A stretch of 45,460 nucleotides of DNA from an uncultured bacterium (GTDB lineage: Bacteria > Electryoneota > Electryoneia > Electryoneales > Electryoneaceae). The stretch spans positions 18,555 to 64,014 of the forward strand of contig CAYOKT010000004.1 of assembly GCA_964404605.1 (NCBI GenBank), read 5' to 3'. The translations under genes were made by a program, and so were the position numbers. Each line of letters begins with the position of its first letter. Positions within the stretch are counted from its first letter, which is position 1. Shown in pieces: positions 6,562 to 18,083 of the stretch. The notes below the pieces were generated by a model. That model had not been told where the DNA came from. It was given only the letters and a program-made list of their open reading frames with translations, and did no database searches.

Positions 6562-7494
6562 ATGTCTATGAATCCCCGCACGATTGCAGCCCGTTTAACG
6601 CTGGTCCTGTTGCTCCTTCCGCTCGCAGCGCCGCCCGCCGGCGCCGCACGGTGGAAAACCCTCCGCCCGGACGGCGGAAAGAAAACGACCCTCCTGGTCA
6701 AGGAAAAACCCTGGAACTACTGGCGGCTGAAGCCCGGCGAGGAGATGAATTTCACCGTGGACGTGCCCGGCCGGTACAGGGTGATCACCCGCGCGGAACT
6801 CGGCACCCGGATGAAAAAGGAGGCCACCTACACCTTTCGCATCGGAATCGATGACCCCGAGGGTATCCTCTACAGCAGGGCCACGATTCCCGCGAAAACC
6901 GTCCAGCGGAAGGGGAAGGCGAAACTGAAGATCGGCGCGAGACGCACCGTGGAGCTGGAGGTGCCCTCCGGCGCGGAGACGATCACCATTCGTCTCGGGC
7001 GGAAAGCACGGTACCCGGTGTACTTCCGCGTGCAGCGGGAGAACGACATCGCCGCCGGGCGGGTGAACTACGTGGCCATCACCCCGGAGAGTTACCTGGA
7101 CGCCCTGGGCGTTTTCGTGCATGAAGAGGGGGTCACCTATTACTTTATCGACAAGGAGGGCAGCCTGTCCCTGCACGTCAACGGTCCGACGACGCTCAAG
7201 GTGCTGGCCCGCATCCTGATGGACGATACGATGCGCGGACGGATCAAGCTGTCGGTGGCGGTGCACGAGGACGGCGTCCTCAAGAACACCTATGCACTCA
7301 GTACGTCACCGAGCCAGATCGCCGAGGTGCCGGAACGCGCGAATTTGCGCCCCTCGCGCGGTGAATCGTTCTATGTCGAAGTCCCGAAGGGGCGTCACCG
7401 CTACTCCTTCACCCTGCCGGAGAACAACCGGGAGGTGTTCCTCCGCTTCTTCCTCCCCGAGCAGGATCTCGCACGGGAGGCGAAGAGCGAGTGA
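6562..7494 (+). CDS. Exported hypothetical protein made of two homologous beta-rich domains
   Basis: Signal peptide (LTLVLLLLPLAAPPAGA), internal duplication of about 140 aa, 14 nt after pgsW. Confidence 0.8.
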   Translation: MSMNPRTIAARLTLVLLLLPLAAPPAGAARWKTLRPDGGKKTTLLVKEKPWNYWRLKPGEEMNFTVDVPGRYRVITRAELGTRMKKEATYTFRIGIDDPEGILYSRATIPAKTVQRKGKAKLKIGARRTVELEVPSGAETITIRLGRKARYPVYFRVQRENDIAAGRVNYVAITPESYLDALGVFVHEEGVTYYFIDKEGSLSLHVNGPTTLKVLARILMDDTMRGRIKLSVAVHEDGVLKNTYALSTSPSQIAEVPERANLRPSRGESFYVEVPKGRHRYSFTLPENNREVFLRFFLPEQDLAREAKSE

Positions 7495-8702
7495 GCGGGA
7501 AGCCGCCCTCCCGGGATTCAAGCGCGCCCGCACGGAGAGCCCGCAGGGGCACGGCGCGCCGCGCCCCCGCAACACATTCTCACGCGCCCGCGCCGCATCG
7601 CCCGCGCAGCCCATTCCCGTTGCTCGGGCTGTCCGGCCTGCTCCTTGCGCTGCTCACCCTGGCGGCCGGCGCCGCCCAGGCCCGGCCGTGGGACTGGCGC
7701 CGCGACACCGGCGTCCAGTTGCGCTGGCGGATCGGCTACGACAGCAACCTGTTCGACTACTCCGCGAGCGACATCGACCGCTTCCTCGACGGCCGTCTCC
7801 CGCTGGAAACCTCCCTCGCCACCTACGACGACCTGGTGCAGGAGTGGGCGGTCCGCCTGCGGTTCGTCAGCCCCGGCATCCACAACAGGTACAAGACCCG
7901 GTTGTACTACATCGCCGGCTACCGTTCCCACTGGAAGAACCGTTTCGACGACCGGGCCTCCCATTCCCTGCTCCTCCTGCAGCGGACGGTGCGGAAGGTG
8001 GACCTCATCGGCAGTTATTTCTGGATCCCCGACCGCTACCTGCGTGACTACTACGACCGCGATACCGGGCGCGTCTCCGCGACGAAGTTCAGCTATCACT
8101 ACGGCACCGCCGGGCTGAGGGTGCAACTGACACGCTCCCTGCGGGCGGAGATGCGGTATGAAGGCTATGCGGTGTATTACAACCCGCTGTTCACCGAGTA
8201 CGATACGAAGGGCCGCGGGCTGCGCGGGGAGCTCCGCTGGAGGACATCGGACGCCTTGAGCATCACGGTGGAACTCCGCCGCCGCTGGGCGGACAACACC
8301 GGCTACGAGGAATCGACCGGCCTCGCCGCGAGCGACTCGACCCTCGATGCGGAGTACGGGGACGGCAGCTACGGGGAGAGCTGGCTGCAGGTGGGAATCG
8401 ACTGGATGCCGGACCGGCTCGTGGCCGGCCGCGAGTGGAACCTCGGCGCATCCCTTCGGCTGCGCCACCGCTACTACACCAGCGCCCTGCCCCTCTCCGA
8501 GGACCCCTTCCACCGGGGGCGCGAACACCTCCAGCACCTCCTTAAGCTCTCCCTCCAAACCCAGGTATTTCCAGGGATTGACGCCGTCCTCGAGGTCGAG
8601 ATCGAAGGCCGGCGGACCGATTCACCCCTCGACCGCGTAATCGAGGTGAAGGACTACGACACCCGCCGCCTCTGGCTCCGCTTCAGCTACGATCTCTGGT
8701 AG
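7491..8702 (+). CDS. Putative outer-membrane beta-barrel protein
   Basis: Signal peptide ending AAQA, GYDSN motif near the mature N-terminus, alternating aromatic beta-strand pattern, C-terminal LWLRFSYDLW; GTGA overlap with the previous gene. Confidence 0.75.
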   Translation: MSGKPPSRDSSAPARRARRGTARRAPATHSHAPAPHRPRSPFPLLGLSGLLLALLTLAAGAAQARPWDWRRDTGVQLRWRIGYDSNLFDYSASDIDRFLDGRLPLETSLATYDDLVQEWAVRLRFVSPGIHNRYKTRLYYIAGYRSHWKNRFDDRASHSLLLLQRTVRKVDLIGSYFWIPDRYLRDYYDRDTGRVSATKFSYHYGTAGLRVQLTRSLRAEMRYEGYAVYYNPLFTEYDTKGRGLRGELRWRTSDALSITVELRRRWADNTGYEESTGLAASDSTLDAEYGDGSYGESWLQVGIDWMPDRLVAGREWNLGASLRLRHRYYTSALPLSEDPFHRGREHLQHLLKLSLQTQVFPGIDAVLEVEIEGRRTDSPLDRVIEVKDYDTRRLWLRFSYDLW

Positions 8703-8837: not shown

Positions 8838-9034
8838 CGCATACCCATTCCGATGACACTTCATGGCGGCGGGCCCTCCGGTCCCTGTTCTCCCGAAATA
8901 TTCCTGCGCCTGAACAAGCATGAACCCCTCTGCGCTCCCCGGTCTGATGCGCTATATTCCCTCCGCCGTGCTCACCAAACAGGCGCGAGGACTCGTCTTG
9001 AGCCGCATGCCCCTCCCGATGACACTTCATGGCG
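8838..9034 (+). repeat. 31-nt imperfect direct repeat, two copies
   Basis: cgcatacccattccgatgacacttcatggcg (8838-8868) and cgcatgcccctcccgatgacacttcatggcg (9004-9034); the last 19 nt are identical. Confidence 0.85.
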
Positions 9035-9057
9035 ATTCGCGGGAAGCCTCTCCCCGT

Positions 9058-11190
9058 GTGCGGCGGAGCCGGCGGAAGGGGCGGCGCCCGGGGCGCTTGC
9101 CGCTTCTCCCCGCGATATGCGGCCTTGTACTCCTCGCCCTCGTCCCGACGGGTGCTGTTCAAGCCGGGAACGATGACACTCCTTCTCTCGTCTCCTTGCG
9201 GGGGACCGTGGCGGGGCGGCCCACCACGCAAATGACGGGGGAATCTCCCCGGCCCCTGTCGCGGGCGTCCGCGACCCGCGCCGCGGAGGACACCACGGCC
9301 GCCGACACCCTCGCGCCGCCGGCAACCCCGCCCACCGCCCCGGTGGGACTCCCTCCCGCGGGCGAGAACGCCGCGGACTCTCTCGCCGAATCCCTGACGC
9401 CCCTGCGTGCACGCCCGCCGGAACTCCTCCCGGACACCCTCTCTCCCCCTCCGCCGCCCCCGGGTGTGGTCCGGATGGACCGCGACGACTGGACCGCGTT
9501 CGGGTACAAGGACACGGGCGACATCGTTTCGCTCCTCCCCGGCCTCTTCCCCCGCCACGCCAGCCTCTACGCCGAGCCGTATTACATCGCGCCGCCCGGA
9601 GGGAGCGGGCGCGACCTGCTGGTCCTCTACCGGGGGAGGCCCTACAACGACCCGGTCCACGGCGCGGCGAACTTCTCCCCCTACGCCGTTGAGGAGGCGG
9701 CCCTGCTGGACGCAGCGCCCGGTTGGGGGGGCAGCGGGCCCTCCTCGCCGGGACCGGTGCTCTCGCTCCATCCCCCGTTCGTGTACCCGACGACGCCGAT
9801 GACGCGCATCGTCTACCGCCAGGGGTTCTACGGCCTCGGGCACGCGGACTGGAGGATCGCCCAGAAGCTGAACCGCTCCTTCGCCTACCACTTCGGGCTC
9901 GACATCGGGGAATACGAGGGGCGCTATACCAATTCCCAGGCGGCGACGAGCCTGCTGCGCCTCGGCGCGCGCAGGGACTTCGGCCCGCTGGGCAGCCTCG
10001 AGATCGACTGGATGCAATCGCGCGTCCGGCATGGAGAACCCCTCGGAAGCCGTTCCCTCAGCCAGCACCGCAACGACCTGGACCTTCTCTGGGCCGTGGG
10101 GGATCGCGAGGACCCGGCCCGTCTCGAGACGGCGGGCTGGTACGTGCGCTCCCGGCGCGGCTACGGCACCGGCGAGGAGGACGGCAACCGTCTCGGCGGC
10201 AGGGTATCCCTCTTTCTTCGCGCCGGCCGCCACCATCTCGCCGGGCGCGTGGACTACGAGCGGCAGGCGGCCGCCTTCCAGCCGATCCGCGGTTTCGGAA
10301 CGCCGAAGGGGGAGCGATTCGTCGGGGGGGTCACACTCTCGGACCTGTACACCTCCCCCACCCTGCGCGCCGCGGCGGGGTTTCGCGGCGAGGTGGGGAC
10401 GGTGGGAAAGGTGAACAAGCCGGGCGAGAGACGGCTCCTGCCGATGGCCGGCGGCTGGGCCTCGTTCGACTGGGGCGGGCGTGGCGGACCCGGACTGATC
10501 GGCACCGCCACCCGCGGCTGGCGCTGGCCCGCGCTGGACGAGTCCTACGGCCGCTGGGTCGCCGACCCCCCGGAACGGCTGATGGATCCGGTCCCGCTGC
10601 CGGCGGACGCCGCGAGCTACACGGGGAACGGAGCCCTCGAACCGTTCACCGGCACCTACGCCGGGCTCGGCGCCCGCTGGCGCTTCGACGGGGGGAGGAG
10701 CGTGCAGCTCCTCGCCGGGCTGCGCCGTTGGGGCGGGCCGCCGGAGCCGCGGGAGACCGCCCCCGGCGTGTTCAGCATGAAACCGGGACCCTCACGCGGC
10801 GGGCCGGAGATCACGGGCTCGGGCCGGGTTCCCCTCTACGGGCCCTTCTCCCTGGCGGGCGCATGGACCTACAGCGAGGCGGGCGACCCGGAAGCCCCGA
10901 TTCCGGCTCAATGGGGCTATGGGGGGCTGCGCTTCGAGAACCTGTACTACGACGGTGAGCTGCGGATGCGCGTCTCGCTGAACGCCCGCTACTGGGGCGA
11001 GTGGACGACGACGGCGGGCAGGCAGCCGGCCGGGTGGGTGTACGACGGGGTCATCACCGCGAAAATCTTCGATTTCGAAGCCTACTGGGGCACGAACAAC
11101 CTCCTCGATTCGACCTACGCCTTCCTCCCCGGCCAGCCGATGATGCACCGCGACGAGATCTGGGGCGTGCGCTGGGTGTTGTGGGATTGA
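9058..11190 (+). CDS. Outer-membrane protein with plug-like domain and beta-barrel (TonB-dependent receptor / putative porin-like)
   Basis: Signal peptide LPAICGLVLLALVPTGAVQA, Pro/Thr-rich linker, plug-like GDIVSLLPG..LLVLYRGRPYNDP, many Gly/aromatic beta-strands, C-terminal WGVRWVLWD. Start uncertain: GTG 9058, ATG 9019 or ATG 8920. Confidence 0.75.
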   Translation: MRRSRRKGRRPGRLPLLPAICGLVLLALVPTGAVQAGNDDTPSLVSLRGTVAGRPTTQMTGESPRPLSRASATRAAEDTTAADTLAPPATPPTAPVGLPPAGENAADSLAESLTPLRARPPELLPDTLSPPPPPPGVVRMDRDDWTAFGYKDTGDIVSLLPGLFPRHASLYAEPYYIAPPGGSGRDLLVLYRGRPYNDPVHGAANFSPYAVEEAALLDAAPGWGGSGPSSPGPVLSLHPPFVYPTTPMTRIVYRQGFYGLGHADWRIAQKLNRSFAYHFGLDIGEYEGRYTNSQAATSLLRLGARRDFGPLGSLEIDWMQSRVRHGEPLGSRSLSQHRNDLDLLWAVGDREDPARLETAGWYVRSRRGYGTGEEDGNRLGGRVSLFLRAGRHHLAGRVDYERQAAAFQPIRGFGTPKGERFVGGVTLSDLYTSPTLRAAAGFRGEVGTVGKVNKPGERRLLPMAGGWASFDWGGRGGPGLIGTATRGWRWPALDESYGRWVADPPERLMDPVPLPADAASYTGNGALEPFTGTYAGLGARWRFDGGRSVQLLAGLRRWGGPPEPRETAPGVFSMKPGPSRGGPEITGSGRVPLYGPFSLAGAWTYSEAGDPEAPIPAQWGYGGLRFENLYYDGELRMRVSLNARYWGEWTTTAGRQPAGWVYDGVITAKIFDFEAYWGTNNLLDSTYAFLPGQPMMHRDEIWGVRWVLWD

Positions 11191-11253
11191 TGAGCTGTGC
11201 CGCCGCGTTCCGCGGGCCGTGGTGCGTCGTGATTGCACGCCGTCGGGGGGAGA

Positions 11254-12189
11254 TCAGGGTCTCTCCGGCACGTAGGAATACGAACCGGCGGGCGCGCACA
11301 GGGACTGCTCCCAGGAGGCGAGGTACTGCCCGCAGTTGCTGCCGATGGCGTTCTCCTCCCGCTCCCCGATGCTGACGATCACCTCGTACCCCGCCGATTC
11401 GAGGGAATCGATGGTCTCCCGCCACCCCGGATCGCTCTCCGCCAGCGGTTTCAGACCGTTCTCTGACGCGCGGCAGGTCGGGTTCAGGGGGGTGACCTTG
11501 ACCAGGAAGACGCCCGGATCGAAGTATTCCCGCAGAACCTTCGGCTCGACCGGCACCCGGTCGATCAGGGCGAAGTTCAAGGTGATCTTCCTGCCGCCCG
11601 TGGCATGGAACCTCTCGCCGTAGCGAGCCATTTCGCCGAACGTCCAGCATCTCACCGGGATCAGCCGTTCGCGCGCCGCCGGGCTGGTGCTGTGGAGGGA
11701 AAACTGGAATTGGAACCGGTCCGGATACAGTTCGCTCTTGACCCGCAACAGCGTCTCGAAGAAGCGATCTGTACCCCCGGGAGCCACGGTGGAGATGGAC
11801 GGCATCAGGCCCGGGGCATGGTATCTCTCCGGCAGGAGTTCGAGGACCTTCACCACGTCGGGGTTGAGCGCGGGCTCGCCCATCCGCGCAAACTGGATCT
11901 TCCACTTTTCACAGGGGACGGTTCCATCCGGGAAGCGCAGCCGGACGAGGTGGTCGATCTGGAACAGCATCTCGCCGGCGGACAGCCTGCCGCGGTAGGA
12001 GCGGCCGGCATCGCACAGCGTGCAGCGTATCGGGCAGCCGTACAGGGTGGAAACGATGTTGACCCATTTCTTCCCGCGCGGGTGGGGAGGCTCCAGGGAC
12101 TCCACGAATTCGACCCGCCCGCCGTTCTCCGTCTCAGCGATGTAGACCACCGCGAGATCGCTCCGCCCGGTTTTCGCGACGATCTTCAT
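11254..12189 (-). CDS. RlmN/Cfr-like radical SAM protein (short form, no N-terminal domain)
   Basis: GCPIRCTLC CxxxCxxC cluster motif, RMGEP, SLHS, PLNP and C-terminal NCGQ align with RlmN-family motifs. Confidence 0.85.
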   Translation of the reverse strand: MKIVAKTGRSDLAVVYIAETENGGRVEFVESLEPPHPRGKKWVNIVSTLYGCPIRCTLCDAGRSYRGRLSAGEMLFQIDHLVRLRFPDGTVPCEKWKIQFARMGEPALNPDVVKVLELLPERYHAPGLMPSISTVAPGGTDRFFETLLRVKSELYPDRFQFQFSLHSTSPAARERLIPVRCWTFGEMARYGERFHATGGRKITLNFALIDRVPVEPKVLREYFDPGVFLVKVTPLNPTCRASENGLKPLAESDPGWRETIDSLESAGYEVIVSIGEREENAIGSNCGQYLASWEQSLCAPAGSYSYVPERP

Positions 12190-13077
12190 CTACTTCGACT
12201 CATCCAGTTTGCGGGAGACCATCATCGCGGCCCTGATCCCGTCCCCCGCCGCGATGGCCGCCTGGCGGAAGGGACCGTTCTGCACGTCCCCGATCAAGTG
12301 GAGCAGACCGGCGGCCTGAAGATCGCGAACCCGGGGCCGCATCGAACCGGAGAGGAAACCCAGGTTCGCCTCGCGCCCGGTCGCCAGTAGCAGGTAATCG
12401 CAGGACTCCCGGACATCGCGCTCCTCGTCCCGCCAGGACAGGGACAAGCACTCCCCGCCCGTCACGATGTTCAAGAGAGTGCTGTCCTCGCGGTATTCGA
12501 TGTCCTCGTTCGCGGCCGCACGTTCCCACAGCAGGGGCAGGCAGGACCGGCGCCCGCCCCGGTTGTGGATCGTCACCCGGTTTCCGCGTCGGGCGAGGTT
12601 CAGCGCATAATCGAACGCCGCGTCCCCCGCGCCGACGATGGAGACCCGTTTCCCGCCCAGGGGGAGCAGCGGGTGGACCTCGTAGAACGCACGCACCCCG
12701 AGGGCGGCATCCAGGCCGGGAAAAGAAACCTCCCGCGGACGGGTGCCGGTGGCGACGACGGCGATCCGGCCGGTGTGCTCTCCCGCAGCGGTCCGAAAAT
12801 GAAAAGCCGCACCGTCGTGTTCCAGTGATTCGACCGCTTCTTGCACCGGCTCCACGCCCGCCCGGGCGAGGTGTTTCCGCAGCAGCGCCGCGAGGCGGGG
12901 GCCGGCGATTCCCTCCGCGAAACCGGGGTAGTTCTCCACCCGGTCCGCGTTCCTCAGCAGCCCGCCGGGAGTGTCCCTCTCGATCAGCAGGGGGGTGATC
13001 CCCTGCCGCCTGAGCTGGATCGCGGCCGCGATGCCCGCCGGGCCCGCGCCGACGATCACCACATCGTGCAGCTTCAT
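12190..13077 (-). CDS. FAD/NAD(P)H-dependent oxidoreductase, thioredoxin-reductase fold, no CxxC
   Basis: IVGAGPAG, ENYPGF, VATG, second Rossmann IVGAGDAA, LATG, LIGD..QAAIAAGDG. Confidence 0.88.
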   Translation of the reverse strand: MKLHDVVIVGAGPAGIAAAIQLRRQGITPLLIERDTPGGLLRNADRVENYPGFAEGIAGPRLAALLRKHLARAGVEPVQEAVESLEHDGAAFHFRTAAGEHTGRIAVVATGTRPREVSFPGLDAALGVRAFYEVHPLLPLGGKRVSIVGAGDAAFDYALNLARRGNRVTIHNRGGRRSCLPLLWERAAANEDIEYREDSTLLNIVTGGECLSLSWRDEERDVRESCDYLLLATGREANLGFLSGSMRPRVRDLQAAGLLHLIGDVQNGPFRQAAIAAGDGIRAAMMVSRKLDESK

Positions 13078-13730
13078 CCCTTGAACTCACCAGCGAGCGT
13101 TTCCATCGTCGTGGGGAAGGCGAAACCATGCGCGAGGTTCAGCAGGGAGGCGCGGTGCAGCTCCCGGTTGTAAGCGGCCGTCCCATCCACGGGGAAGAAC
13201 ACCTGCAGCCCCCGAACGAACGCGGAGCGGGCGGTCGTCTCGCAGCAGAGATTCGTCATCACCCCGGTGATCACCACCTGGCCGACCCCGCCGTCCCTCA
13301 GCCGTCGCAGCAGGGGCGTGTCGTAGAAAGCGTCATATTGCGATTTCACGATGACCGGGACGGCGAAACGCGCGAGTTCCGGCACGATTTCGCTCTCCGG
13401 GTCCTCCTCCCGGATCAGTCGCCGCCACCAGGAACCCATCATCGCGGCGTTCTCCAAGGTATTCAGGTGCCGGGTGAAATACACCGGCCTCCGCGCATCG
13501 AGGAACGCCTTCACCATCCTGCGGATTCCCGGCAGAACGGCAGGTGCGGAGGGAACGAACGCGTGGGAGTCGGGGCTGAGAAAGCACCGCTGCATGTCCA
13601 GCACGAGCAGGGCGGCCGTTTCGGGATGGAAGTCCGCAGGAGGGCGGCGAAACGCGATCCCGGCCAACAGGGACTCGGTCGTCCCGTCGATCGTCTCAGC
13701 GGTGAAATACGGTTCCCGCATACCGGTCAT
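13074..13730 (-). CDS. Isochorismatase-family cysteine hydrolase
   Basis: LLVLDMQ (Asp), VIVKSQYDAF (Lys), GVMTNLCCETTARSAF (Cys): the D-K-C triad. Confidence 0.92.
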   Translation of the reverse strand: MTGMREPYFTAETIDGTTESLLAGIAFRRPPADFHPETAALLVLDMQRCFLSPDSHAFVPSAPAVLPGIRRMVKAFLDARRPVYFTRHLNTLENAAMMGSWWRRLIREEDPESEIVPELARFAVPVIVKSQYDAFYDTPLLRRLRDGGVGQVVITGVMTNLCCETTARSAFVRGLQVFFPVDGTAAYNRELHRASLLNLAHGFAFPTTMETLAGEFKG

Positions 13731-13838
13731 TTCAATTGGTTCAGTGATTGTTCCGTGCGGTTCAACAGTGCGGGCCGCCGGACGAAGAGGCGGGCTGCGA
13801 AGATGCGGCTGCCTTGCCGAAGGACGACCCCCCCGGGC

Positions 13839-15233
13839 TCAGAACTTCCCCTGGTAGTAGGTCCCCTTCTTGATCCCGAAGCGCTCGACGAGGCCGGCCT
13901 TCACCAGGGTTTGCACGTAACGGCGCGCCCCGGAGGTCTTCGTGCGCAGAACGTCGGCGATGTCCTGCATGCGGAATTTCTGCTCCTTGCGGGAGAGGAT
14001 GAAGCCGACGATCTTTTCCGCTTTCCCCGGGGTGAAGTTGATCCCGGCGGCGAAGACCCGCTCCACGCCGTTCCGCAACCGTTCCGGGTCCGGTCTCGGC
14101 GAGACCGGCGGGTACGCCGCAACCAGCTCGAGGTTCTCCGGGTAGATCGTTCCCAGGGAGACCAGTTCGGCCCGTTCGAGGACATTGGCGAGCTCACGCA
14201 CGTTCCCCGGCCAGGAATGACGCTCCAGGATACGGAGGGTCTCCGGGTGAAGCTCCTTCGCCCGTATCTTGGCGCGCTGCGCGAGGAGGGCGAGAAAATG
14301 CACGCTGAGAACCGCCACGTCCTCCGGCCGTTCACGGAGGGGCGGAAGGTGGATGGGCAGAATGGCGAGACGGTAGTAGAGGTCAAGCCGCAGGCGCCCG
14401 GAAGCGACGAGGTCCTCAAGGGGCACCTGGGAGGAGGCGAGAATCCGGACGCCGATCCAGTCCTCTCCCGGTTTCTCCTCGTGATCCAGCCGCTCAAGCC
14501 ACTCCAGCAGCGCCGGCTGCACCTCCGGCGACAACCGTGAAATCTCGTTGAGATAAAGCGTTCCGCCGACGGCATCGCCGGGCAGCGGCACGGCGGACTC
14601 CTCGCGCCGCTCCTCGGGGGGCCTGCGGGTGCCGGTTTTCATCGAGGCGGTGATCATCTCCCTCGTCAGGAGGGAGGAGGGGAGATTCACAAAGGGCCCG
14701 GAGCGGCGCGACCCCGCCGCGTGGATCACCCTGGCGACAAGGTCCTTCCCGGTTCCGGTCTCCCCCAGCAGCAGCGTTGTCACCTCGCGCCGGGCGGCGA
14801 TGCGGACGAGGTTGACGACATCCCGCCAGGCCCGCGAGATGCCGATAAGCTGTTCCATGGGCCGGGCGTCCAATCCGAATTCCTCGGCCCACTCGCCGGG
14901 ACGCTCCGGGCGCTCGCGCAGGGGAAACGTCCCCAGGCGGTCGAGCCAGGACTCCCTGGGCCCTCCCCGGCGCATATAGGGTACGGCGGTCTCATGGAAC
15001 GCCGCGCCGGCGTCGCTCTCCAGCAAGTAGCGTTCGATGTCCTCCAGCAACTCGACCGAGGAGCGCAACCTGCTCGGAGGAGGGACCCGCCGTGAGCCAT
15101 CGTGCTTCCTGTACCAGTCCCATGCATCCATCAGGTTGGGATAACTTTTCGGATCCTGCCCCGAGAGGTACGCGGCCGAGTATCGCAACACATTATCGCA
15201 CCAGGACCGGAAGAGGTGATGTTGATCGATCAA
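13839..15233 (-). CDS. NtrC-type AAA+ transcriptional regulator, degenerate (no GAFTGA), with C-terminal winged HTH
   Basis: GETGTGKD Walker A, GGTLYLNEI, DLYYRL, LPPLRERPED, WPGNVREL; TTG start overlapping the upstream stop. Confidence 0.8.
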   Translation of the reverse strand: MIDQHHLFRSWCDNVLRYSAAYLSGQDPKSYPNLMDAWDWYRKHDGSRRVPPPSRLRSSVELLEDIERYLLESDAGAAFHETAVPYMRRGGPRESWLDRLGTFPLRERPERPGEWAEEFGLDARPMEQLIGISRAWRDVVNLVRIAARREVTTLLLGETGTGKDLVARVIHAAGSRRSGPFVNLPSSLLTREMITASMKTGTRRPPEERREESAVPLPGDAVGGTLYLNEISRLSPEVQPALLEWLERLDHEEKPGEDWIGVRILASSQVPLEDLVASGRLRLDLYYRLAILPIHLPPLRERPEDVAVLSVHFLALLAQRAKIRAKELHPETLRILERHSWPGNVRELANVLERAELVSLGTIYPENLELVAAYPPVSPRPDPERLRNGVERVFAAGINFTPGKAEKIVGFILSRKEQKFRMQDIADVLRTKTSGARRYVQTLVKAGLVERFGIKKGTYYQGKF

Positions 15234-16216
15234 GGTTTCTGCTCCCAGGCGACGACCACTCGATTCCGTCCGCTGTTCTTGGCTTCGTACAGGCTTTCAT
15301 CCGCCGCGCGCAGCAACTCCGTCGCGGTGGCATAATTCGGGTCGGGGTAGTACGATGCGCCGATCGAAATGGTCACCTGGCGCATCTTTCCCCCTTCGGG
15401 AGGCGTTTTCTCGCAGAACTGGAACTCTTCGATGTTCTGGCGAAGACGATCGGCGACGAGTTTCACCCCGTCCGGGGTGGTTTCCGGTAGGATGACGACG
15501 AATTCCTCGCCTCCATAACGGGCGGCGATATCGACCCGCCGGACGGTCTGTAGGACGAGTTGGCCGATTTCCCGGAGCACCACATCACCGATCAGATGGC
15601 CGTAATCATCGTTGACCAGCTTGAAATGGTCGATATCGAACATCAAACATCCGAGGTGAATCCGGTAGCGCTTCGCCCGCGCGAACTCACCATCGATCAC
15701 ATCCTCGAAATACTGGCGGTTGTACAACCCTGTCAGCCGGTCGGTGATCGCCTTGCCCCACAGCTCCCGGTTCTCGGCGAGGAGCGTTTCGCGGGTGGTG
15801 AGCAATTGGTGGAACCGGAGGGAGCGGGCGACACGAAACTTGAACTCCTCGATGCGGAAAGGCATGTATACGAGATCATCGGCGCCGAGTTCGAGGGCTT
15901 TCAGGCCGACCTCGTTGCCGAAGGCGGTGGCGATGATCACCGGAATGTCGGCATGAATGGCGCGGATGTTCGTGAGCAGGGTGATTCCATCCATCTCCGG
16001 CATGCGGACATCGGAGATGACAAGCTGATACGGCAACTTGTGCAGTTTCTTCAGGGCCTCGACGCCGTCTCCCGCCTCCGTGACCTCATACTGTCCCTCC
16101 TGCTCGAGAACATCTCTCATCAATTCCCGAGTGGCGGGGTTGTCATCCACGACGAGGACACGGATTTTCCGCCTCTCCTCCGTCGTTTTCTCTTTACGAT
16201 CCGCGGCCAGATTCAT
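15230..16216 (-). CDS. Response-regulator diguanylate cyclase (REC-GGDEF, WspR/PleD-like)
   Basis: VLVVDD, ISDVRMPEMDG, ATA receiver motifs; TDRLTGLYNR, DIDHFK, RRVD I-site, GGEEF. Start set at ATG 16216 (GGAGG RBS, ATGA overlap with nfi). Confidence 0.93.
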   Translation of the reverse strand: MNLAADRKEKTTEERRKIRVLVVDDNPATRELMRDVLEQEGQYEVTEAGDGVEALKKLHKLPYQLVISDVRMPEMDGITLLTNIRAIHADIPVIIATAFGNEVGLKALELGADDLVYMPFRIEEFKFRVARSLRFHQLLTTRETLLAENRELWGKAITDRLTGLYNRQYFEDVIDGEFARAKRYRIHLGCLMFDIDHFKLVNDDYGHLIGDVVLREIGQLVLQTVRRVDIAARYGGEEFVVILPETTPDGVKLVADRLRQNIEEFQFCEKTPPEGGKMRQVTISIGASYYPDPNYATATELLRAADESLYEAKNSGRNRVVVAWEQKP

Positions 16217-16932
16217 TTCGACGAGACCTCCAACCTTTTCCGATATTCGCCCGCGGCGCGATGCGCCGCCCGGATCGGTTCGGGAAGACGATAACGGCCC
16301 AGTGTGCGCATCACCCAACGTACGGCTTCTTCATGCCCGATTCGATGACCGGGGGAGACCCATACAGGTTTGACCCCGCGCCGTGTGCGAAGCACCGTCC
16401 CGATGCGCTCACCCCGATCGCGGCAAATCGACCGGTCCCCTCTCTCCGGGCCCGGTTCGCCGCATACTCCGACGAGACGACTCTTCGCGCATCCCACCGT
16501 GGTCCACCCGGTGACCAGCCCGAGGTGGCTCGCCAGGCCGATTCTCCTCGGATGGGCGATCCCCTGCCCATCCACGAGGACCAGGTCGGGCCGATGCGCG
16601 AGCTTCTCCGCCGCGCGCAGGAGAACCGGGATCTCCCGGTAGGAAAGGAAACCCGGGACATAGGGAAATTCGACCGGCGCCGACACGACGACGAGATCCT
16701 CGAGAACGAGACCCGGCCGGCGGAAGAGGGCAAGCGCGCCGATCATCAACTGCCGGTCCGGCGAGATCGAGGCGTCCGTCCCCAGGATCCACCGGACTTC
16801 CGATTCGCCCGGTCCCCCTTCGACAAGGACCCGCTCCGCAAGACGCAGTTGTTCGTCTCTCGCTTCTTCCATGGAGCCCGGGAGCCGCCAGGCGACAACC
16901 CCGGGCCGGAGAGCACCTCCGCGGGAGTTCAA
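16213..16932 (-). CDS. nfi: Endonuclease V (deoxyinosine 3' endonuclease)
   Basis: FPYVPGFLSYRE, LVDGQGIAHPRRIGLASHLG, VGCAKSRL, KPVWVSPGH, RLPEPIRAAH; start codon uncertain. Confidence 0.95.
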   Translation of the reverse strand: MNSRGGALRPGVVAWRLPGSMEEARDEQLRLAERVLVEGGPGESEVRWILGTDASISPDRQLMIGALALFRRPGLVLEDLVVVSAPVEFPYVPGFLSYREIPVLLRAAEKLAHRPDLVLVDGQGIAHPRRIGLASHLGLVTGWTTVGCAKSRLVGVCGEPGPERGDRSICRDRGERIGTVLRTRRGVKPVWVSPGHRIGHEEAVRWVMRTLGRYRLPEPIRAAHRAAGEYRKRLEVSSK

Positions 16933-17100
16933 CGTTTCAACATCGGTCTCGACGTCCCCCCGAGAACAAAACCGGGCTATCCACCACCGATACGCGCCGG
17001 GCTCAACCGCCTCCCGGCGGAAACACTTCCGATGATTACCGAATGTGACAGTCTCGTTCCGGCCACAGAGCCCCTATGTACCACATTTCGGCTTTTTGGG

Positions 17101-17129
17101 AAAATAGGTGTATCACGAACCCGGGTCAA
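17101..17129 (-). promoter_or_regulatory. Putative sigma70 promoter for the nfi-GGDEF-AAA+ operon
   Basis: Minus strand TTGACC (17129-17124), 17 nt, TATTTT (17106-17101). Confidence 0.55.
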
Positions 17130-17189
17130 ACCCCGATCGTCACCTTTTTTTCCGAAGCCGCCCCTCCCCGAGAGGCGTGGAACCACGGG

Positions 17190-18083
17190 TTATCCGCTGT
17201 CCTCCGAGGCGACCGGGTTCCCGAGCGTGCCGATCGGCGGGCAGGCGACCTCCACGAAGTCCCCCTCCGCCAGCGGGCCGACGCCCGCCGGTGTGCCGGT
17301 GGCGAGCAGGTCTCCCGGGCGCAATCCGACAGCGCGGCCCGCCGCCGCGAGAAGCTCCCCCGCGGACCACAGCCAGTCCTCCGGGCTCCCCTCCTGGCGT
17401 AATTCTCCGTTTACCAGCGTCCTGAACCGAAGAGCGGTCACCTCCCCGGGAGAGTCGGGGAAATAGAGAGCCGGGCCGCAGGGGGCGAAGGTGGGACGCC
17501 CCTTCGCCCGCAACCATGGCTTGCCCTCGCGCTTCAGGCGAGCCTGCACGCCCCGGTCGGTGACATCGTTCATCAGGGTCACGGCGAGGAGCGCCTCCAG
17601 CGCCTGTTCGGCATCCTCCCGGCCGGTCAGCCGGCGCCCCGTGATGAGCACCAGCTCGCCCTCGTACTCCACCCGCTCGGCATCCGCGGGGAGGAGGATC
17701 GGTTCTCCGGTGGCGATGAGCGCGGCGCGCGGCTTCAAAAAGAACACCGGCTCGGCGGGCACCGGGTTGTTCAGCTCGCGGGCATGGGCGGCGTAATTCC
17801 GCCCCACGCAGAGGAGGTCGCCCCCGCGCAGGGGGACCCGGAACCGGGCACCTTCAGGGTCGCGGGGCACGATGGCGCCCAGCGCATCCCGGACGGCTTC
17901 GACCGCCTCGCGGGGGTCCGGCGACCGGAAGAGGCTGTCGAGGTCCGGCGGCCTGTCATCCGGCAGGAGACCCCGCGCCCGAAGTCCGGCGAAGGTTTCC
18001 CCGAGGGGGAGCAGGACCTCCCCCTCCCCGATCGCCGCCGGTTCGCTCCGGCCATCCGCCCAACGCACCATCGCCAGCCGCAT
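17190..18083 (-). CDS. Fumarylacetoacetate hydrolase family protein
   Basis: CVGRNYAAHAREL, PVFFLKP, VEYEGEL, MNDVTDR, AKG, GDLLATGTPAGVGPL; start at ATG 18083 behind AAGGAGG. Confidence 0.92.
   Translation of the reverse strand: MRLAMVRWADGRSEPAAIGEGEVLLPLGETFAGLRARGLLPDDRPPDLDSLFRSPDPREAVEAVRDALGAIVPRDPEGARFRVPLRGGDLLCVGRNYAAHARELNNPVPAEPVFFLKPRAALIATGEPILLPADAERVEYEGELVLITGRRLTGREDAEQALEALLAVTLMNDVTDRGVQARLKREGKPWLRAKGRPTFAPCGPALYFPDSPGEVTALRFRTLVNGELRQEGSPEDWLWSAGELLAAAGRAVGLRPGDLLATGTPAGVGPLAEGDFVEVACPPIGTLGNPVASEDSG

Follow-up and report, generated by a model that had tools for sequence, protein, structure and literature searches.

What reaction can an enzyme of the radical S-adenosylmethionine (SAM) type and the RlmN fold carry out without the resolving cysteine of RlmN, and on which substrate? 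The question is raised by a three-gene cassette on a DNA stretch of 45,460 nucleotides from an uncultured bacterium of the Electryoneaceae (assembly GCA_964404605.1, contig CAYOKT010000004.1, positions 18,555 to 64,014). We call this whole stretch the window and give coordinates within it. The cassette spans 11254-13730, with all three open reading frames (ORFs) on the minus strand, and encodes an isochorismatase-family cysteine hydrolase, a flavoprotein of the thioredoxin reductase (TrxR) fold and a radical SAM protein (rSAM) resembling the RNA methylases RlmN and Cfr. An earlier note on this DNA, made from the letters alone, had described the trio, had supposed that the rSAM is not a standard RNA C-methyltransferase and had placed it in a possible small-molecule or cofactor pathway. 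That observation is confirmed here and the interpretation is partly supported. We tentatively favour the explanation that the trio is a self-contained, NAD(P)H-driven radical SAM system whose target is neither the ribosome nor tRNA and would most likely be a free small N-heterocycle of the purine or 7-deazapurine type carrying an amide-type group; we put this a little below an even chance.

The radical SAM protein departs from RlmN and Cfr

The rSAM gene (11254..12189, minus strand) encodes an RlmN-fold protein of 311 aa with no N-terminal RNA-binding domain. It was aligned with E. coli RlmN (NC_000913, the annotated K-12 record) and with the RlmN of the host genome itself. C118 of RlmN falls on Ile45 of the cassette protein (NIVSTLYGC), and C355, the methyl-carrier cysteine, falls on Cys286 in the GSNCGQ loop (11326..11343, minus strand). 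The stretch NIVSTLYGCPIRCTLC (12013..12060, minus strand) encodes Ile45, then the CX3CX2C motif (C52, C56 and C59) and then an invariant Asp60. The protein starts at about RlmN residue 77-90 (about position 77 of the TIGR00048 model) and the N-terminal helical domain of RlmN has no counterpart in it. The alignment and the start of the TIGR00048 match thus bear out the reading in the earlier note that this domain is missing, and the pairing of GSNCGQ with AACGQ of E. coli RlmN does the same for its reading that the C-terminal methyl-carrier cysteine is kept.

In an alignment of 124 sequences (the window rSAM, 119 of the 120 listed homologues and four fusion proteins) the residue at position 45 is isoleucine in 67, leucine in 38, methionine in 12, valine and threonine in three each and asparagine in one, and never cysteine. 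C52, C56, C59, Asp60 and Arg102 are kept in 124 of 124 sequences and Cys286 in 123, the sole gap belonging to a truncated protein. No other column contains cysteine in 25% or more of the sequences. A different cysteine taking over the resolving position, which the earlier note had named as a point to check, is thus not found at the level of sequence, there being no other conserved cysteine in the 124 proteins.

The rSAM scores 32 bits against the RlmN model TIGR00048 (cut-off 290) and 23.3 bits against the Cfr model TIGR04432 (cut-off 550), and its matches to Radical_SAM and RlmN in Pfam and NCBIfam are both weak. The AlphaFold2 model has a mean predicted local distance difference test (pLDDT) score of 88.4, with low confidence (about 53-62) in the C-terminal segment 271-311 that holds the Cys286 loop. 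Foldseek places this model closest to 6fz6 (TM 0.72), E. coli RlmN 3rfa (0.69) and Cfr 9p0p (0.57), the next fold being that of the pyruvate formate-lyase activating enzyme (0.50). These matches, together with the retained CGQ loop cysteine, argue for descent from the class A radical SAM methylases, and a class A mechanism is the simplest reading of the retained loop. Isoelectric points (family median 5.7; E. coli RlmN 6.6) are uninformative on RNA binding.

RlmN and Cfr (A2503 of 23S rRNA and A37 of tRNA; 3rfa, 5hr7, 6fz6 and 9p0p) thus share with the cassette rSAM their fold (TM 0.57-0.72), the CX3CX2C, GEP and SLH motifs and the CGQ cysteine on a mobile loop near the C-terminus. In contrast, the cassette rSAM has no N-terminal helical domain, has an aliphatic residue at the C118 position and has the invariant residues Asp60 and Arg102. 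It also differs in having an obligatory flavoprotein partner and a hydrolase partner and in coexisting with a canonical RlmN. To our knowledge class A radical SAM methylases are represented only by RlmN and Cfr, which act on RNA and require two cysteines. The statement in the earlier note that both cysteines are needed agrees with the available text of a review (PMC9692996), which adds that class A turnover requires a further one-electron reduction from a source not yet identified.

The three genes form a conserved unit

The hydrolase gene (13074..13730; 218 aa; PF00857) and the flavoprotein gene (12190..13077; 295 aa; Pyr_redox_2) lie upstream of the rSAM gene on the same, minus, strand. The hydrolase/flavoprotein junction, GGATGAAG (13074..13077), is an ATGA overlap of stop and start, and at the flavoprotein/rSAM junction, TAGATG (12187..12192), the stop abuts the start with a 0-nt gap. 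Both were read directly in the sequence, and the coupling of the three genes is as the earlier note had described it.

The rSAM family is widespread. Among the scored candidates 4357 homologues were found at E <= 0.001, and the best 120 of these are 55-63% identical. Relatives occur in Chloroflexota, Calditrichota, Zixibacteria, Ignavibacteria, Aminicenantes and Clostridia and in the archaea Methanogenium and Methanomassiliicoccales. A scan at the species level (one genome per species) confirmed 506 relatives among the 600 pattern matches listed, and when 1.84 billion cluster representatives were searched with a profile, the matches numbered 158 at E <= 1e-30, rising to 605 at E <= 1e-10 and to 2467 at E <= 0.001. 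The family therefore covers at least 506 species-level genomes and, at E <= 1e-30, 158 clusters at 50% identity. No member of the cassette family was found among IMG/VR viral contigs searched with the family patterns. A search of plasmids gave one weak match, in a relaxase/recombinase island. This is an unannotated 327-aa radical SAM gene of the Subdoligranulum plasmid OY725877.1 (L103:4731-5714) whose product is 28% identical to the cassette rSAM, and it sits between relaxase and serine recombinase genes on a mobilizable replicon.

Linkage was counted in the best 80 of the 506 relatives. Of the 71 loci with at least 950 nt of upstream sequence, 69 have by tblastn a flavoprotein gene upstream on the same strand; it is absent at loci L072 and L073 and more than 400 nt away at L041 and L081. 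For the hydrolase gene the corresponding count is 47 of the 59 loci with at least 1750 nt upstream. Four of five genomes with hydrolase-less cassettes encode an orthologue-grade copy elsewhere (156-172 bits, 43-45% identity, nearly full length), and the neighbours of these unlinked copies are unrelated from genome to genome. In a single case the unlinked orthologue lies between the genes for adenylosuccinate lyase and SAICAR (phosphoribosylaminoimidazole-succinocarboxamide) synthetase (L101:5986-6636). Within the taxonomic family of the host the full trio is present in 10 of the 10 loci with enough upstream sequence. The earlier note had left open whether the three genes are linked in other genomes, and by these counts they are.

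None of the loci of the host family shares the flanks of the window, which are a sigma-54 activator, a GGDEF regulator, endonuclease V and two large Pfam-less proteins. Clustering of the neighbouring ORFs of the 80 loci yielded no conserved fourth gene, the largest extra cluster being ABC (ATP-binding cassette) ATPases in 14 loci. Because the trio is kept while the flanks differ, and with no fourth gene, the unit consists of exactly these three genes. The QueT and nucleosidase families, which are considered below, are absent from the neighbour clusters of the 80 loci, although the clustering and spot Pfam scans might miss such genes. In five loci an XdhC-family gene directly follows the rSAM gene (L043:2048-3088, L058, L061, L063 and L066), and in three a MobA-like nucleotidyltransferase (NTP-transferase) gene lies just downstream (L042:7611-8213, L052 and L056); one XdhC-family member and one MobA-like member were confirmed by Pfam. 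Both families are usually tied to the molybdenum cofactor.

A dedicated flavoprotein partner

The flavoprotein has two Rossmann-type domains for flavin adenine dinucleotide (FAD) and NAD(P)H. Pyr_redox_2 (78.8 bits) and Pyr_redox_3 both score above their Pfam cut-offs, and the best match in the PDB is the TrxR 2q7v (E 8e-33), with a TrxR-type ferredoxin-NADP reductase at E 7e-12. It shares with TrxB and the TrxR-type ferredoxin-NADP reductases the two-domain FAD/NAD(P)H fold. In contrast to TrxB it reads AFYEV where 2q7v has CATCD, so the redox-active CxxC is missing, there is no invariant cysteine across 60 aligned orthologues, and the score against TIGR01292 (TrxB) is 142.4 bits with a cut-off of 343. 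What is conserved, besides the GxGxxG/A motifs, are GxGDAAFDYAL and LPLLWER, the latter lying at the modelled interface with the rSAM.

Two lines of evidence point to physical contact. Natural flavoprotein-rSAM fusions occur in three representatives from the profile search (P0124, P0132 and P0154) and in a 698-aa ORF at L059; natural rSAM-hydrolase fusions occur in P0121-P0123, P0161, P0164, P0177, P0194 and P0203. In addition, the complex of rSAM and flavoprotein was modelled with FAD and a 4Fe-4S cluster included and with custom alignments. Three runs scored 0.70, 0.00 and 0.66, giving a median of 0.66 against 0.01 for the best control. Of 157 solved complexes 116 attain this mark, as do 2 of 215 mismatched pairs; the calibration is only rough for a complex modelled in this way. 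Contact agreement from run to run was at least 0% and the pLDDT of the partners at least 90. On the rSAM side the modelled interface includes P53 and R55 within the CX3CX2C loop, and on the flavoprotein side it comprises residues 175-222, which contain the family-specific LPLLWER. The model supports, but does not prove, binding of the two proteins to each other, with the flavoprotein predicted to dock on the cluster-binding loop, and the interface geometry fits docking of a reductant over the cluster. A direct flavoprotein-rSAM partnership is thus supported by the fusions and by a complex model that passes its controls.

A radical SAM enzyme equipped with a flavin reductant of its own has a precedent, by the available text, in eukaryotic TYW1 (PMC8941971). 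TYW1 differs from the cassette in that its flavin is held by a flavodoxin-fold flavin mononucleotide (FMN) domain, it belongs to another radical SAM family and its substrate is tRNA.

The hydrolase

The hydrolase matches Isochorismatase (PF00857) over the full length of the domain with 133.7 bits against a gathering score of 27. Its closest solved relative is EntB (2fq1, E 2e-18). C162 is found in 41 of 41 orthologues and C163 in 37 of 41, both within the motif MTNLCCET (13236-13259, minus strand); D45 and K129 stand in columns that are at least 90% conserved. We take Asp45-Lys129-Cys162 to be the catalytic triad from what is known of the family. The protein is therefore like other PF00857 enzymes (EntB/PhzD, RutB, BiuH and nicotinamidase) in its full-length domain and its Asp-Lys-Cys triad. 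It retains the nucleophile cysteine where EntB has glycine in the alignment, and it reaches no NCBIfam equivalog cut-off (BiuH, 49.7 of 370 bits; RutB, 46.4 of 378; YcaC, 28.2 of 310; and PRK11440, 49.1 of 195). It also has a conserved N-terminal extension of 38 aa and motifs of its own (SHA..PS, T.H.N and WW). Pfam detects no RNA-binding domain in any of the three cassette proteins, and a PADLOC search for defence systems gave no match for the rSAM or the hydrolase.

Genome content: the cassette does not stand in for RlmN or ThiC

The host genome encodes a canonical RlmN with both cysteines. This gene (G000:C10:49640-50665; L001:1195-2547) scores 282 bits, just below the cut-off of 290, and lies in a 450-aa ORF that extends about 100 residues upstream of the likely start. 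In a survey of 79 genomes of the phylum, RlmN was found in 75 and the cassette in 34, and 33 of the 34 cassette genomes have both. Replacement of RlmN by the cassette was accordingly rejected. Moreover, the cassette enzyme departs from RlmN and Cfr in three defining features (C118, the N-terminal domain and the score against the curated models) and coexists with canonical RlmN, in agreement with the earlier suggestion that it is not a standard RlmN/Cfr.

We also considered the cassette as a substitute for ThiC, which would supply the C2-methyl pyrimidine of thiamine. The host lacks ThiC, but ThiC is present in 12 of the 34 cassette genomes compared with 3 of the 45 others, and this candidate was rejected too. 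Neither QueC (9 of the 34 cassette genomes, 5 of the 45 others) nor tRNA-guanine transglycosylase (TGT; 31 of the 34, 42 of the 45) discriminates; related genomes are not independent and no statistics are attached to any of these phylum counts. Most of the phylum has TGT without QueC: of the 79 genomes, 73 carry TGT and 14 carry QueC.

The host genome (96% complete) encodes TGT (437 bits) and QueA (403 bits), with no QueC (21 bits) and no ThiC. The host therefore probably depends on salvaged queuosine precursors and on external thiamine pyrimidine. No ThyA was found in the host genome. A 650-aa open frame (G000:C13:28780-30087) contains two ThyX-like stretches, the better of which scores 71 bits against a cut-off of 87.9, and the thymidylate synthase of the host may be such a tandem ThyX.

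Distant relatives in phages and fused to QueT

More distant relatives of the cassette rSAM (27-33% identity) were found in 17 phage records and are of three kinds; they belong to PHROG 24834, a group of unknown function. Those of Salmonella phage Arash (L085:3920-4849) and Stenotrophomonas phage ANB28 (L087:3881-4840) lack the N-terminal domain and keep both catalytic cysteines, and the 'mini-RlmN' gene of ANB28 lies inside a phage tRNA gene cluster. The gene of Bacteroides phage Versailles, within a replication module, encodes isoleucine at the C118 position, Asp60 and a TCGN loop. Moorella phage MTATph1 (L084:4836-5798) has glycine at the C118 position and alanine at position 60. We had considered Asp60 as a strict covariate of C118 loss, and this candidate fails in the Moorella phage. 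The MTATph1 gene is split: after the TAA that closes the core ORF come a ribosome-binding site and then a distinct 40-aa ORF containing GAACGQL, so that the methyl-carrier loop would be a separate small protein. The split gene adjoins a thymidylate synthase gene.

A domain scan of 14 long or odd representatives from the profile search revealed a fusion of a QueT transporter with an rSAM domain (P0223) and two QueT-rSAM-PNP_UDP_1 fusions (P0243 and P0261). The last domain of P0243 is a methylthioadenosine/S-adenosylhomocysteine (MTA/SAH) nucleosidase (223.9 bits; cut-off 169). The rSAM domains of these fusions are of the Versailles type, with FCD after the cluster motif, a TCGN or TCGK loop and no cysteine at the C118 position. 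The Versailles-type family comprises 6433 proteins at E <= 1e-20 among the scored candidates; none was found at E <= 1e-70 in 301 cellular genomes of one class, where a second search gave matches of 33-35% identity only. This 'FCD...TCGN' clade (P0223, P0243, P0261, P0237, P0214 and Versailles) is the nearest clade outside the cassette, with 150-165 bits against the cassette profile. It is like the cassette rSAM in having no N-terminal domain and no cysteine at C118 and in keeping Asp60 and the C-terminal loop cysteine. It is unlike the cassette in its loop (TCGN rather than SNCGQ) and in having no flavoprotein or isochorismatase partner: its members are fused to QueT and MTA/SAH nucleosidase or stand alone in phage replication modules.

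The QueT fusions recall the queuine-salvage cluster of C. difficile, which in the available text of two papers (PMC11130926, PMC12632869) consists of the nucleosidase QueK (CD1682), the transporter QrtT (CD1683) and the radical SAM enzyme QueL (CD1684), the last of which converts queuine to preQ1. From its gene and fusion architecture the QueT-fused clade is possibly the QueL family; our literature search found no paper that names both QueL and RlmN. Fusion to an S-component of the vitamin/nucleobase type argues for an imported free base, and against RNA, as the target of the QueT-fused branch, and the architecture of this branch points to a purine-like free base as the substrate.

What does the cassette do?

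Taken together, these data lead us to a tentative scheme. The flavoprotein would dock on the cluster-binding loop and reduce the [4Fe-4S] cluster with electrons drawn from NAD(P)H by way of FAD. Cys286 would be methylated by one SAM, as in RlmN, and a 5'-deoxyadenosyl radical formed from a second SAM would convert it to a Cys-S-CH2 radical that adds to an sp2 carbon of the substrate. The adduct would then be resolved without Cys118, either by another base, for which the invariant Asp60 that follows the third cluster cysteine is a candidate, or reductively. The flavoprotein may also give the second electron that class A chemistry requires; as the available text of the review speaks of an extra electron of unidentified source (PMC9692996), a dedicated flavoprotein could supply it. 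The hydrolase would act on an amide carried by either substrate or product. A small-molecule substrate is suggested by the missing N-terminal domain, by a partner from a family of small-molecule hydrolases and, as indirect support, by the distant C118-less, Asp60-keeping relatives fused to QueT and MTA/SAH nucleosidase.

Several points weigh against this scheme. The cassette family has no member with a known substrate, product or activity, and a full-text literature search for the gene combination and for RlmN paralogues, with subscription papers largely outside its scope, found no paper on the family. Retention of Cys286 does not prove methyl transfer. One of the three runs of the complex model scored 0.00, and because the flavoprotein makes its modelled contact through the NAD(P)H domain, the model does not establish the distance from flavin to cluster. 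No conserved fourth gene, riboswitch or regulator hints at a ligand, and within the phylum the phylogenetic profiles of ThiC, QueC and TGT fail to discriminate. Finally, the phage relatives that keep both cysteines without the N-terminal domain mean that loss of this domain does not by itself exclude RNA.

Chief among the rivals is a non-methylating radical lyase, isomerase or reductase. Here the 5'-deoxyadenosyl radical would take hydrogen from a small molecule, Cys286 would be a hydrogen-donor or redox cysteine, and its thiyl would be re-reduced by way of the flavoprotein, possibly in salvage or degradation of a queuosine-related or purine-like base. We consider this unlikely as matters stand; should the sister clade turn out to be QueL, this reading would become more credible. 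The absence of the resolving cysteine of class A methylation from all 124 aligned proteins is in its favour, and an obligatory reductant suits a thiyl that needs reduction at each turnover. The nearest relatives outside the cassette are fused to the QueT transporter, the QrtT/QueT-QueK-QueL cluster of C. difficile makes preQ1 from queuine without methylation in the available text of the papers describing it (PMC11130926, PMC12632869), and the host has TGT and QueA (437 and 403 bits) with QueC at 21 bits. However, the link between the QueT-fused clade and QueL is one of architecture, with no paper found that contains both 'QueL' and 'RlmN'; the profiles of QueC (9/34 and 5/45) and TGT (31/34 and 42/45) do not discriminate; and the GSNCGQ loop is nearer to AACGQ of RlmN than to TCGN of the QueT-fused clade.

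The readings in which the cassette modifies a nucleic acid or one of its own proteins are less likely. As a C-methyltransferase of tRNA, rRNA or DNA, the rSAM would rely on its partners in place of the N-terminal domain and the resolving cysteine. Its fold and CGQ loop are indeed those of RlmN and Cfr, the relatives in Arash and ANB28 do without the N-terminal domain while keeping both cysteines (that of ANB28 among tRNA genes), and further phage relatives are found in modules of replication or nucleotide metabolism. The co-occurrence of canonical RlmN in 33 of 34 cassette genomes, the lack of an RNA-binding domain in the three proteins and the absence of C118 speak against such a role, and we know of no part played by isochorismatase-family hydrolases in RNA modification; we think it distinctly unlikely. 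That the rSAM matures one of its partners, either the hydrolase (its CC motif being one conceivable site) or the flavin of the flavoprotein, to give a modified enzyme or cofactor as the product, seems highly improbable. Stoichiometric pairing, the fusions and the predicted physical contact would suit a maturase, as would the invariant Cys162 and near-invariant Cys163 of the hydrolase. Against this, the hydrolase gene is non-adjacent in 12 of 59 loci, the modelled contact involves the NAD(P)H domain, not the flavin, and we know of no RlmN-fold enzyme that acts as maturase of a partner.

Flanking sequences in the window

The 108-nt spacer 5' of the cassette (13731..13838, minus strand) contains no recognisable promoter or riboswitch: neither a sigma-70-like site nor a convincing terminator was found in it. 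A sigma-54 promoter in the spacer, which would tie the cassette to the neighbouring sigma-54 activator, was considered and rejected, as there is no exact match, and of the 42 matches with up to three mismatches (74 expected) none lies in the spacer. An Rfam search of positions 10500-17500 gave nothing credible, just two sub-threshold chance matches, and in 12 relative loci Rfam found tRNAs and one rRNA only, with no riboswitch.

Upstream of the spacer lies a gene (13839-15233, minus strand) for a sigma-54 activator without a receiver domain, in which a C-terminal MarR/IclR-like winged helix replaces the usual Fis-type helix-turn-helix. It is preceded, with a 4-nt overlap, by a gene for a response-regulator diguanylate cyclase with a GGDEF domain (15230-16318, minus strand). 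Both are unlinked to the cassette in other genomes. On the other side, two genes on the plus strand (7491-8702 and 8920-11190) encode large proteins of 403 and 756 aa with no Pfam match and with aromatic C-terminal residues; the second is convergent with the cassette. As a guess from the sequence, the two may be outer-membrane proteins.

Implications

The cassette defines a family of RlmN-fold enzymes with an altered catalytic set and obligatory partners, which is widespread and uncharacterised. A family that keeps the methyl-carrier cysteine without the resolving cysteine, and is accompanied by a flavoprotein, would have either a second way to finish class A chemistry or an RlmN scaffold turned to small molecules. 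As the source of the second electron of class A enzymes is described as unidentified in the available text of the review (PMC9692996), the cassette offers a natural test case for it. The QueT-fused relatives, in turn, suggest a concrete and cheap list of substrates for the cassette enzymes.

A bolder version of our scheme, which we regard as a long shot, is that the rSAM is a new one-carbon transferase in which class A turnover is brought to its end by the dedicated flavoprotein, through reduction of the Cys-S-CH2-substrate adduct or of a thiyl, and not by a second cysteine. The outcome would be NAD(P)H-driven C-methylation of a free purine-like or 7-deazapurine-like base, which the hydrolase would then trim. 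If this is true, there would be a so far unrecognised modified nucleobase or cofactor that hundreds of anaerobic bacteria and archaea produce or salvage.

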